DNA of 12,273 bases from an uncultured Saprospiraceae bacterium (lineage in GTDB: Bacteria > Bacteroidota > Bacteroidia > Chitinophagales > Saprospiraceae). The translations under genes were made by a program, and so were the position numbers. The DNA is taken from assembly GCA_964509175.1 (NCBI GenBank), contig CAZDWO010000095.1, positions 1 through 12,273 on the forward strand, given 5' to 3'. Under the pieces are notes generated by a model that did no database searches, was not told the DNA's origin, and saw only the letters and a program-made list of their open reading frames with translations. Of the stretch, positions 3,771 to 5,288 are shown piece by piece. Position 1 is the first letter of the stretch. Each line of letters begins with the position of its first letter.

Positions 3771-3925
3771 CATACCCATCCTTTTCTTCAAGTAGTAAGT
3801 CTTGTTCCGATATTGATATATCGGTTCAATCATTTTCCATTGACATTTAGTCAATAGAATTTGTGATAAAATCACAAAACACTCATTCATCCCTTGGCCA
3901 AGGGAAGGATTAAAGGATGGGTATG
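3771..3925. repeat. 155-bp element bounded by 14-15-bp perfect terminal inverted repeats (tCATACCCATCCTTT ... AAAGGATGGGTATGa)
   Basis: 3771-3784 is the exact reverse complement of 3912-3925. The interior carries the two-hairpin repeat (3807-3855), the hairpin TTTGTGAT-aaa-ATCACAAA (3860-3878) and the palindrome CCCTTGGCCAAGGG (3891-3904). The same termini and core are found in the mini-element at 2783-2836. Confidence 0.4.
3807..3855. repeat. bipartite two-hairpin repeat, copy a (CCGATAT-tgat-ATATCGG ... ATTGAC-attta-GTCAAT)
   Basis: Direct repeat of 5240-5288. The 17-mer ATTGACATTTAGTCAAT and the flanking TCGGTTCA are identical in both copies. The first stem differs (CCGATAT/ATATCGG versus CCGAAAC/GTTTCGG) but stays fully paired, and the tgat loop is identical. 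Confidence 0.45.
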
Positions 3926-3941
3926 ACTTCCCAAAATCTAG

Positions 3942-4087
3942 TACGGAAAGAGAGACTCGAACTCTACTTTTCTATAAAAGATGAATCCTAGCTGGAGGAC
4001 GGAGCATCCAGTTCCTTCACTTTACATGGTGCATTTAGCACCTTGTAATTCGCCAAGAGGCGAATCGCTCAGTCTTATCATTTCCGT
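3942..4087 (-). ncRNA. tRNA-like RNA with ~100-nt structured insertion (contains structured repeat copy 1) or disrupted tRNA pseudogene
   Basis: Minus strand. Perfect 7-bp acceptor ACGGAAA (4087-4081) / TTTCCGT (3948-3942). T-arm TAGAG-TTCGAGT-CTCTC preceded by the variable-arm-like hairpin CTTTT-ATAG-AAAAG. No canonical D-arm or anticodon arm. The interior is three hairpins. Confidence 0.3.
3985..4079 (-). repeat. ~95-nt structured repeat, copy 1 (three hairpins)
   Basis: Homologous to 4275-4368. Hairpins (minus sense): ATTCGCC-TCTT-GGCGAAT, GGTGC-TAAAT-GCACC, and CTGGA..TCCAG. The differences from copy 2 are compensatory (GGTGC/GCACC versus AGTGC/GCACT; the loop differs while the stem is kept). 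Confidence 0.45.
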
Positions 4088-4107
4088 ATTAATCTCTATT
4101 CGTTGTG

Positions 4108-4178
4108 TTGTCCAGATAGGGTTCGAACCTATACTATCAGAATCAAAACCTGATGTGCTGCCATTACACTACCGGACA
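4108..4178 (-). tRNA. tRNA-Gln(TTG)
   Basis: Minus strand: TGTCCGG TA GTG-T-AATGGCAG-CAC A TCAGG-TTTTGAT-TCTGA TAGT ATAGG-TTCGAAC-CCTAT CTGGACA A. U1-A72 as in many Gln tRNAs. Clean cloverleaf. No CCA encoded. Confidence 0.7.
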
Positions 4179-4189
4179 AGTTTTTAAAG

Positions 4190-4262
4190 TACTCCGTATG
4201 GGACTCGAACCCATTTTTCCTGATAGAAAGTCAGGTGTACTAGCCGCATATACGAACGGAGC
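4190..4262 (-). tRNA. tRNA-Glu(TTC), non-canonical U37
   Basis: Minus strand. Acceptor GCTCCGT/ACGGAGT (G1.U72). D GTAT-ATGCGGCTA-GTAC. Anticodon arm CCTGA-CTTTCTA-TCAGG (anticodon TTC, position 37 = U). T-arm ATGGG-TTCGAGT-CCCAT. Confidence 0.5.
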
Positions 4263-4274
4263 AAATAGTAAAAT

Positions 4275-4368
4275 ATCCTAGCTGGATGACGGAGCATCCA
4301 GTTCCTTCATTTTAGCAAGTGCATTTAGCACTTACTAATTCGCCTTTCGGCGAACCATTCAGTCATCC
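4275..4368 (-). repeat. ~95-nt structured repeat, copy 2
   Basis: Minus sense: TTCGCC-GAAA-GGCGAA (GNRA-type loop), AAGTGC-TAAAT-GCACTT, and CTGGATG-CTCCGT-CATCCAG (7 bp). It lies between tRNA-Asp and tRNA-Glu. Confidence 0.45.
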
Positions 4369-4431
4369 GAAGGCGAGCAAACAACCACCGTTATTTCCCT
4401 AGATGTAAAACTGACTTTTCAGTTTCAATTG

Positions 4432-4506
4432 CAGTACTGACGAGGCTCGAACTCGCAACCACCCGAGAGACAGTCGGGCACTCTTCCAATATTGAGTTAC
4501 AGTACT
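4432..4506 (-). tRNA. tRNA-Asp(GTC), non-canonical U37 and A1-U72
   Basis: Minus strand: AGTACTG TA ACTC-AATATTGGAA-GAGT G CCCGA-CTGTCTC-TCGGG TGGTT GCGAG-TTCGAGC-CTCGT CAGTACT G. Followed by the 8-bp hairpin GAAACTGA-AAAG-TCAGTTTT (4407-4426). Confidence 0.5.
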
Positions 4507-4536
4507 ATCTATGTTATTTACTTTTGGCTATGAGCC

Positions 4537-4570
4537 AAAAAAAAAGCACCACTCTGATTACGGAGCAGTG
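4537..4570 (-). terminator. intrinsic terminator (minus strand; bidirectional-looking)
   Basis: On the minus strand GCACUGCUCCGUAAUCAGAGUGGUGC is followed by nine Us (reverse complement of the A9 run at 4537-4545). On the plus strand the same stem is followed by TTTTT (4572-4576). Confidence 0.5.
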
Positions 4571-4999
4571 CTTTTTACTAGAGAGATGATTTAAAAAAAT
4601 CATTCTATCTGTATATAACTTCTCTGTGTATCTACATAACTCGGCTCTTGCAGTCGATCTATTCTATGATCCTGCTCCTGATTTATCCCCCAGAATGTCG
4701 GTAATACGTATGTGTAATTATTTTTCATTTCTATTTTACTTTATGTTGCTTCTCTACAACAGATTCCATTTGTTTTGGAGACGCAAATGTAAACACAAAG
4801 TTTTCCAAAAACCAAATTTATTATTTATTTAATTTACTGATTATCAATTAGTTATGATCGTTTTAGACATAGAGTGGCCTGTCCACTTTTAGTAGATATC
4901 TTGCATTTTTTCCAATAGTCTGTCTCCCAATGGTTTATCTATCAATGCTTATTTTTTACTTCTTCTTATTTACTATTCATATTTCTAAAAATTATTTCT

Positions 5000-5036
5000 A
5001 AAAAAAAAGCGTCCAAAAATAAATCTGGACGCTTAT
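5000..5036 (-). terminator. intrinsic terminator downstream of rtcB
   Basis: On the minus strand AGCGUCCA-gauuuauuuu-UGGACGCU (8-bp stem) is followed by U9 (the A9 run at 5000-5008). It lies ~265 bp after the rtcB stop codon. Confidence 0.55.
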
Positions 5037-5239
5037 GCTTTATACTTATATGTTTTCTATTCTAATTACTACATATACATCTATGGCAATAGCATCCCTG
5101 ATCGCTCAGTTGCTCTATAAAATCAGATACTCGATCTGACCTTTTGGGTAAATTAATATGTATTGACAATTTCATAATCAGTACAAAGGTAATACAGTAA
5201 TCAATATCTAATCAAGTTTTTATTACAAATCTAGTCTTG

Positions 5240-5288
5240 CCGAAACTGATGTTTCGGTTCACAAACTTTTGATTGACATTTAGTCAAT
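5240..5288. repeat. bipartite two-hairpin repeat, copy b
   Basis: CCGAAAC-tgat-GTTTCGG ttcacaaacttttg ATTGAC-attta-GTCAAT. It starts 10 bp after the rtcB stop codon. Direct repeat of 3807-3855. Confidence 0.45.

Follow-up and report, generated by a model that had tools for sequence, protein, structure and literature searches.

The stretch of DNA analysed here, called the window, is a 12,273-nt contig of an uncultured Saprospiraceae bacterium (contig CAZDWO010000095.1 in the GenBank assembly GCA_964509175.1), and it carries an rtcB gene, a divergent gene for a WYL-WCX regulator and, on the strand of rtcB, a group of tRNA and tRNA-like genes, among which lie copies of a short non-coding repeat element (Table 1). 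From the letters alone, the sequence-only reading of this locus had picked out a 49-bp repeat of two hairpins, one copy close behind the rtcB stop codon and the other after the last tRNA-like element of the cluster. The two repeats read CCGATAT-TGAT-ATATCGG-TTCA-ATCATTTTCC-ATTGACATTTAGTCAAT (3807-3855) and CCGAAAC-TGAT-GTTTCGG-TTCA-CAAACTTTTG-ATTGACATTTAGTCAAT (5240-5288), and they have in common a 7-bp hairpin, the segment TCGGTTCA and the identical 17-mer palindrome ATTGACATTTAGTCAAT. Both first stems are indeed perfect 7-bp helices with the loop TGAT, which differ in two base pairs, each of them compensated (T-A to A-T and T-A to C-G). The motif AGTCTTG stands just 5' of both repeats as described (3798-3804 and 5233-5239), and the stop codon of rtcB (5299-5301) is 10 bp away from the end of the second one. 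The pair was recovered by an independent repeat search as family D2 (54 nt, 78% identity). The 17-mer occurs exactly twice in the window, and at up to three mismatches 200 dinucleotide shuffles gave a mean of 0.14 matches, none reaching 3. A three-mismatch relative of the palindrome, ATTGATGTTTTGTCAAT, is located at 12208-12224, where the covariance model detects no element, and this resemblance is probably due to chance.

Architecture of the element

The 49-bp repeats are the P1, linker and P2 parts of the two most similar copies of a non-coding repeat element of about 96 nt with three hairpins (P1 to P3). The similarity between these copies runs about 45 bases past the 49-bp repeat, through a third hairpin and a conserved tail, and the second hairpin is really about 10 bp long, with covarying outer pairs. 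The repeat is therefore real, structured and non-random, as had been proposed, and its stems are held by compensatory change in 60 distinct copies, whereas its description as a 49-bp unit of two hairpins was incomplete. The order of the element is P1 with the loop TGAT, the linker GGTTCAyTCAyTT, P2 of about 10 bp with the loop ATTTA, the hypervariable P3, and the tail (A)CCrTTCrTTCATC. P3 (3-8 bp) follows P2 directly and is different in sequence in each copy, yet it is always paired. The variants of hairpin 1 covary (CCGATTC/GAATCGG, CCGAATC/GATTCGG, CCGCTTC/GAAGCGG and others); the conserved parts are the two loops, the linker and the tail.

The search for further copies that the sequence-only reading had called for, made with a hidden Markov model and then with a covariance model, brought the total in the window to four clear copies and a degenerate one, all in the same orientation. 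In copy a, P1 is formed by 3807-3813 and 3818-3824, the linker by 3825-3834, P2 by 3835-3859 (core ATTGAC-ATTTA-GTCAAT at 3839-3855), P3 by 3860-3867 and 3871-3878, and the tail by ACACTCATTCAT (3879-3890); its minimum-energy fold consists of the three hairpins, with z = -4.6 on the plus strand and z = -3.6 on the minus strand. Copy b is built in the same order, with P1 at 5240-5246 and 5251-5257, P2 at 5268-5292 (core 5272-5288), P3 at 5293-5299 and 5304-5310 with one mismatch, and the tail CCGTTTGTTC at 5311-5320, and its two strands fold with z = -5.3 and -4.7. Copies D1a and D1b make up the 90-nt repeat family D1, whose stem sequences differ from those of copies a and b and whose loops and linkers are the same. 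The stems of D1a are CTGGAGG/CATCCAG around a 6-nt loop (P1), GGTGC-ATTTA-GCACC (P2) and ATTCGCC/GGCGAAT (P3). Both strands of the window copies fold about equally well (z between -3.6 and -6.3).

Two variations of this architecture were also seen (loci other than the window are given here as L numbers). In a minority subtype (window 5258-5320; L015 1641-1736; L053 501-599), the linker (ACAAAC or GTAAAC) is complementary to the tail (GTTTGT or GTTTAC), and their pairing yields a fourth helix that closes P2 and P3; in the main type the two instead repeat the motif TTCAyTCA in direct orientation. Some copies in L006 (4871-5109, minus strand) have an extra hairpin of about 28 nt (TTATCCAGTAGGCACCGTCCTACAGGAT) in the loop of P1, which partially resembles the P1 region of the D1 subtype of the window.

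Table 1. Element copies, altered tRNA-like genes and other features of the window
Feature	Position	Strand	Evidence or remark
Copy a	3799-3897	+ (orientation of the finding)	Covariance model, 82.3 bits over all 96 positions; nhmmer 3802-3896
Copy b	5232-5329	+	Covariance model, 83.9 bits, full length
Copy D1a, divergent subtype	3984-4083	+	Repeat family D1; nhmmer; covariance model, 55.8 bits
Copy D1b, same subtype as D1a	4274-4373	+	Repeat family D1; nhmmer; covariance model, 58.3 bits
Degenerate fifth copy	2883-2961	+	Weak covariance-model match, 24.1 bits, E = 0.009
X1, tRNA-Leu(TAG) orthologue	3942-4087	-	Three-way alignment with L023 8694-8775 and L057 2623-2705
X2, at the place of tRNA-Leu(TAA) of relatives	3772-3924	-	Sequence, inverted repeats, synteny
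X3, tRNA-Leu(CAG)-like, perfect acceptor stem, contains the degenerate copy	2838-2970	-	ARAGORN
Permuted tRNA-like modules (T arm then D arm)	2257-2480	-	Rfam; also in L023 at 9840-10010
Canonical intrinsic terminators	5007-5034 and 4541-4576	-	Bound small units between rtcB and the tRNAs
rtcB (457 aa)	5299-6672	-	Pfam RtcB, 118.8 bits; 3' end overlapped by copy b
WYL-WCX regulator, divergent from rtcB	6724-7776	+	Window gene list
Band_7	848-1954	-	Window gene list
TPR protein	3072-3650	-	Window gene list
S41 peptidase	7783-8769	-	Window gene list
LytTR	9769-10593	-	Window gene list
DUF4197	10710-11420	+	Window gene list

Distribution of the family and its association with tRNA genes

Species-representative genomes were scanned with the pattern CGGTTCA-N(8-12)-ATTGAC-N5-GTCAAT, and the true matches were confined to Saprospiraceae and Bacteroidota metagenome-assembled genomes (L004-L007, L011, L015), the remaining ones being chance matches in unrelated G+C-rich contexts. 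A scan of metagenomes added 30 loci. Over Saprospiraceae genomes and metagenome contigs, 67 copies were found by nhmmer and 66 by the covariance model R1, 60 of them distinct. In these 60 distinct copies, 94.1% of the stem cells are paired, compared with 66.7% in shuffles and at most 40% when the partners are slid; 20 of the 22 pairs are changed on both sides, and the covariation score is 0.545 against 0.127 in shuffles. The 1215 stem cells comprise 1131 Watson-Crick pairs, 12 G-T and 5 A-C, so that wobble makes up about 1%; the G-T and A-C cells are too few for a choice of strand, and their count is biased by the orientation of the model. No family of Rfam 15 matched the element, either at the gathering thresholds or in more permissive searches of the window (E up to 5) and of the L051 array (E up to 1). 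A phage origin was rejected, no match to the element being present in viral contigs or phage records, and plasmids gave only a chance match of 30 nt. A full-text search of the literature returned no description of an element of this kind, and the family is apparently new.

The copies are arranged in various ways. L006, L015, L035 and L051 have tandem arrays of 5-6 units, some of which adjoin one another head to tail; truncated and chimeric units are among them. The element stands at the contig end in 8 of about 14 full-length metagenome contigs, and in one sample more than 10 contigs have nearly identical copies (84-100% over the shared repeat), which are there part of a larger mosaic repeat. 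In L029 this larger repeat takes the form of a non-coding insertion of about 750 bp (2460-3275), which carries one element copy and has terminal inverted repeats (CCTGTTTTCGCC/GGCGAAAACAGG) and a flanking direct repeat of about 30 bp; in that sample, many contigs terminate in related mosaic pieces. With respect to the gene upstream, the element is oriented one way at rtcB and in L005, L039, L045 and L004, and the opposite way in the tRNA-Val arrays and L006. Moreover, it abuts the stop codon of a convergent gene in L005, L039 and L045. The neighbours are unrelated housekeeping genes (for a DEAD helicase, an aminotransferase, PorZ, a BamA-like POTRA protein, an HflX-type GTPase, a histidine kinase, an OmpA-family protein and others), and thus the family is not rtcB-specific; most copies lie in loci that have no WYL gene and are unrelated to rtcB. 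No recurrent neighbour protein family was found by all-against-all BLAST of the open reading frames (ORFs) of the element loci, which gave only orthologues from syntenic contigs.

In about 5 of 10 independent locus groups, the element is within 300 nt of a tRNA gene, and many copies are not near any tRNA gene. The tRNAs concerned are tRNA-Val(GAC) in at least 5 loci, tRNA-Cys, tRNA-Phe and those of the window array, and pieces of tRNA-Val, Cys, Phe and Leu, both sense and antisense, are joined to the ends of the element. At the right end, sense fragments run from the anticodon loop of tRNA-Val to its 3' end, with trailer and terminator (L044, L046), or consist of the 3' acceptor strand with trailer (arrays of L031, L035 and L051) or of the tRNA-Cys 3' end (L006); antisense ones are positions 1-25 of tRNA-Val (upstream copies of L032, L035 and L051) and the T arm of tRNA-Phe (L004). 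Antisense and 5' fragments (L004, L005, the upstream copies of L032, L035 and L051, and X1) are as common beside the element as sense 3' ones. Furthermore, a tRNA-Val(GAC) gene is situated between inverted copies in L032 (13165-13522; 57 and 56 nt from them), L035 (1143-1530; 62 and 64 nt) and L051 (6704-7090; 62 and 63 nt), with a tRNA 5' fragment on the outer side of the left copy and a 3' one beyond the right copy. Such an arrangement resembles what insertion of a tRNA-carrying unit into a pre-existing tRNA-Val gene would leave.

Orthologous loci and altered genes in the window

The loci L023 and L057, whose RtcB proteins are 86% and 87% identical to that of the window, are syntenic with it and contain no copy of the element. 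Their order is WYL, rtcB, a conserved small unit with terminators, the tRNAs Asp-Glu-Gln-Leu(TAG)-Leu(TAA), the TPR gene, tRNA-His and Band_7. The other related WYL-rtcB loci (L021, L025, L058 and L060), which together with these two make six, have no copy either. The spacer between tRNA-Asp and tRNA-Glu is about 79 nt long in L023 and 168 nt in the window, where it holds copy D1b. The orthologue of tRNA-Leu(TAG), X1, keeps its acceptor stem (ACGGAAA/TTTCCGT, a perfect 7 bp), a compensated variable arm and the T arm, and in place of its positions from about 10 to 43, which correspond to the D arm and the anticodon arm, it has D1a in reverse complement. In X2, a 13-18-bp stem (ATACCCATCCTTT... 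/ ...AAAGGATGGGTAT) surrounds copy a in reverse complement, together with a CCCTTGG/CCAAGGG hairpin. X3 was called an intron-containing tRNA-Leu by ARAGORN only at lowered thresholds, and its position 33 is G, not U. Next to it, X4 (2785-2836) is a 52-nt hairpin with the ends ATACCCA...TGGGTAT, which are also those of the frame that surrounds copy a; L023 lacks X3, X4 and the tRNA-Met behind them. At the rtcB end, the stop codon and the last 7 codons lie within P3 and the tail of copy b, and the similarity of RtcB to its orthologues stops at ...DAPWR, after which the window protein ends in KNKRSRR and the others in NRRKR, RRR or RRKRSRD. Since the relatives have the rtcB-tRNA array without copies, the window copies are later additions to an existing locus, in which they damaged two tRNA genes.

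A second comparison is offered by L054 and L007, which are 79% identical over 2.6 kb and share one orthologous copy, a second copy being present in L054 at a place where the orthologous site of L007 is without one. In the common copy P3 is wholly replaced beside the conserved P1-P2 block, which indicates exchange between copies. Clean empty sites and target duplications were looked for at these sites, and the junctions proved too diverged or rearranged in both comparisons (the window with L023 and L057; L007 with L054).

The window is a bacterial chromosomal fragment and not phage; a phage collection gave no near match to it, and metagenomes hold contigs nearly identical to it. Homologues of its RtcB are 87-68% identical and mostly about 455 aa long, and the nearest named ones come from Saprospiraceae and other Bacteroidota. 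The WYL-WCX gene stands divergently beside rtcB in every relative retrieved (L021, L023, L025, L058 and L060), whatever follows rtcB, and from this gene order WYL and RtcB look like a conserved regulatory pair. Between rtcB and the tRNAs, the segment 4781-5115 is 69% identical to L023 7783-8116, and at about 4600-4728 a contig near-identical to the window has a called ORF of 42 aa. Within the permuted tRNA-like modules, which are kept in the syntenic relative, the Rfam family YrlA (Y RNA-like) matches at 2278-2376 with 36 bits, under its gathering score of 69, and the tRNA model matches at 2329-2395 (31.8 bits, just over the gathering score of 29) and at 2257-2324 (26.1 bits, under it). This suggests candidate Y-RNA-like RNAs beside rtcB; no rsr gene is present in the window.

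Possible origin and meaning of the element

We interpret this repeat family, with its covarying structure, its variable presence at orthologous sites and its tRNA-fragment fusions, with moderate confidence as dispersed, non-autonomous, hairpin-structured repeat DNA of Saprospiraceae (Bacteroidota) that prefers tRNA genes. The element would be gained and lost between related genomes, build head-to-tail arrays and exchange modules, and it would have spread as DNA. The copies of the window would be secondary insertions into an older rtcB-tRNA array. One of them would have taken the place of the D and anticodon arms in tRNA-Leu(TAG), and others would have come to lie in what is left of tRNA-Leu(TAA), in the Asp-Glu spacer and on the rtcB end, where the copy would now supply the last seven codons and the stop. 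The hairpins with the loops TGAT and ATTTA and the TTCAyTCA motifs may be recognised, single-stranded or extruded, by a trans-acting enzyme, possibly a transposase or recombinase encoded elsewhere, and transcripts would be affected only incidentally, if at all, as is the case for REP, BOX and Rickettsia palindromic elements. Spread and decay as DNA are suggested by the gain and loss, the arrays, the truncated and mosaic copies, the contig ends, the occurrence in both orientations, the gene-destroying insertions, the near-pure Watson-Crick stems and the about equal folding of both strands.

Several observations weigh against this interpretation. No transposase or recombinase linked to the element was found by BLAST among the ORFs of the element-bearing loci, and neither terminal inverted repeats nor a target duplication were detected in the flanks of 22 distinct copies. 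A clean empty site was not found, the boundaries of the polymorphic sites being blurred by divergence. The five window copies all have one orientation, and the strict pattern finds one locus per species-representative genome, including an 8-Mb chromosome, which means a low copy number in many genomes. Moreover, a copy upstream of tRNA-Val is retained, with its structure kept, across marine and other metagenomes, and in the copy common to L007 and L054 the P1-P2 block is about 93% identical, compared with 79% for the region. Such conservation of orthologous copies above their flanks suggests either a host function, be it as RNA or as a site in DNA, or strong homogenisation between copies. As for a candidate enzyme, the sole Y1_Tnp gene among the ORFs of the element-bearing loci (part of 436 kb) is an IS200-like gene in L045 (6254-6691, minus strand; Pfam, 146 bits). 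Two copies of the element lie 3 kb from this gene, whose flanking hairpins bear no relation to it. No RAYT gene was found, and the link to IS200 or RAYT that had been considered has no support from these loci.

Comparison with known repeats shows both likeness and difference. REP/BIME and REPIN elements (repetitive extragenic palindromes) are mobilised by RAYT transposases, and they are likewise short, non-coding and intergenic, often lie after stop codons or between convergent genes, have compensated hairpins and occur in clusters and in both orientations. However, the element is about 96 nt long and has three different helices with conserved linkers instead of a single imperfect palindrome of 20-40 nt with a GTAG-type head, usually set in inverted pairs, its copy number is low in many genomes, and its link to tRNA is strong. 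Pneumococcal BOX elements and Rickettsia palindromic elements, for which no transposase is known, are about 100-150 nt long, highly structured, non-autonomous, mosaic and modular, have no clear terminal inverted repeats or target duplication, and can land in genes and leave them readable, which recalls the rtcB tail. They have no known sequence relation to the element, which is limited to Saprospiraceae-like Bacteroidota, replaces whole tRNA helices and forms arrays beside tRNA-Val. The palindrome-associated elements derived from IS200/IS605 (PATE) are similar in their asymmetric ends, the lack of terminal inverted repeats and target duplication, the possible head-to-tail arrays and a hairpin near each end, the right end of the element being about 12-15 nt after P3. 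In contrast to them, the left flanks of the element differ between loci with no constant tetra- or pentanucleotide at the left junction, P1 is conserved, P3 is hypervariable and the two are dissimilar, and the IS200 gene of L045 has other hairpins. A MITE is not a fitting model, the left end yCCCAyCC and the right end TTCATC of the element not being inverted repeats.

The main alternative, which appears possible, though on the unlikely side, is that the element is an RNA module co-transcribed with tRNAs or rtcB and sometimes fused into chimeric tRNA-like RNAs such as X1; its conserved loops and linkers would then be binding sites for a protein or RNA, and there might be a link to an RtcB/Y-RNA-like repair locus. 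The very strong covariation, the conservation of loops and single-stranded segments and the conservation of orthologous copies above the flanking level are consistent with this, as is the fact that the complements of all five window copies are on the strand carrying rtcB and the tRNAs. Behind each unit of the tRNA-Val arrays, the same strand carries a 3' part of the tRNA with a trailer and then an intrinsic terminator, X1 retains its perfect acceptor stem and compensated variable arm, the tRNA junctions fall at helix boundaries (9/10, about 25, 32-34, 43/44 and 65/66), and the YrlA-like modules belong to the same operon. YrlA and other tRNA-like RNAs of RtcB loci resemble the present case in their genomic neighbourhood, and X1 joins a tRNA acceptor stem and T arm to foreign hairpins; however, the YrlA and tRNA models of Rfam do not match the element, which is mostly in loci unrelated to rtcB. 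A functional RNA is further opposed by the lack of a constant sense strand across loci and by the wobble fraction, which shows no clear strand asymmetry and is low compared with typical RNA alignments. The related WYL-rtcB loci do without the element, copies are truncated, chimeric or at contig ends, and neither a recognisable promoter nor an Rfam family was found. A sigma-70 or Bacteroidota promoter within the palindrome was considered and rejected, since the spacing of -10/-7 is wrong and the promoter scan gives fewer sites than shuffles do.

It is improbable that the unit is swapped into tRNA scaffolds at helix boundaries and so gives rise to chimeric tRNA-like RNAs, consisting of an acceptor stem and T arm with three hairpins or of hairpins with a tRNA 3' half. 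These could be decoys or substrates for tRNA-cleaving nucleases in the RtcB/Y-RNA-like locus of repair or defence, or products of cleavage and ligation at the RNA level copied into DNA; if this were true, they would form a kind of bacterial gene for tRNA-derived RNA of which we have seen no description. The simpler idea of a tRNA intron or of a split tRNA joined by RtcB, raised by X1, X3 and the adjacent ligase gene, was rejected, as removal of the insert leaves no tRNA: X1 without it has about 65 nt and lacks the D and anticodon arms entirely.

Also distinctly improbable is an origin as attachment-region remnants of small tRNA-targeting integrative elements, with the tRNA pieces as attachment-site duplications and the hairpins as recombinase or accessory sites. 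Array units do end in the sense tRNA 3' part (L044, L046; L031, L035, L051; L006), tandem partial tRNA 3' segments stand downstream of an intact tRNA gene as at such attachment sites, and the sublocations at the array ends are those classically used by tyrosine integrases. The units, however, are non-coding and about 110-190 nt long, antisense and 5' fragments are equally common, no integrase was found within about 3.5 kb in any locus examined, many copies are away from tRNA genes, and the stem covariation is unlike double-stranded arm sites.

Very improbable, finally, are the roles of a terminator or processing signal, of a WYL operator, or of att-like boundaries of the 1.4-kb tRNA segment as a cassette. 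The perfect 17-mer palindrome, the position of copy b right at the rtcB stop and the convergent-gene stops in other loci would suit them, but there are five window copies, not two, and the element takes both orientations relative to upstream genes. No T-run follows the hairpins on either strand, and a terminator scan of 2000-7000 lists none at the positions of copies a and b; AACAAGACTTACTAC and CAAGACTAGATTTG, without a U-tract, come next after the hairpins on the minus strand, and the same locus uses canonical terminators 200-700 nt away (Table 1). The position at the 3' end of a minus-strand unit that was proposed for both repeats is right for copy b, which even so overlaps the last rtcB codons; copy a is inside a disrupted tRNA-like gene. 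The 1.4-kb tRNA segment did not arrive as a cassette between the two repeats, since L023 and L057 have the same array without copies and the window has more copies than these two. An operator is not supported, no copy being present in the rtcB-WYL intergenic region (6673-6723) or in the six related WYL-rtcB loci, and in divergent copies the palindrome arms covary round the conserved ATTTA centre, which indicates hairpin behaviour, the opposite of a double-stranded operator. With regard to the suggested protein-binding site, a hairpin-binding factor is plausible.

For the rtcB-tRNA locus of the window, this means that the repeats are uninformative on its regulation or boundaries. Compared with REP/BIME, BOX and Rickettsia palindromic elements, the family has a similar lifestyle and is set apart by its three hairpins, its conserved unpaired motifs and its link to tRNA genes; the covariance model R1 is now available for a census of it. 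The strict conservation of the two loops and the two TTCAyTCA segments points to a putative trans-acting partner. If the interpretation as non-autonomous repeat DNA holds, tRNA genes would be the preferred target of a family of structured repeats, apparently not described before, in the Saprospiraceae, filamentous Bacteroidota that abound in activated sludge and in marine and fresh waters. Metagenome assemblies would then break at its sites, accessory tRNA genes would be inactivated and gene ends could be rewritten, and annotators would read the results as 'tRNA-like' or intron-containing tRNA genes.

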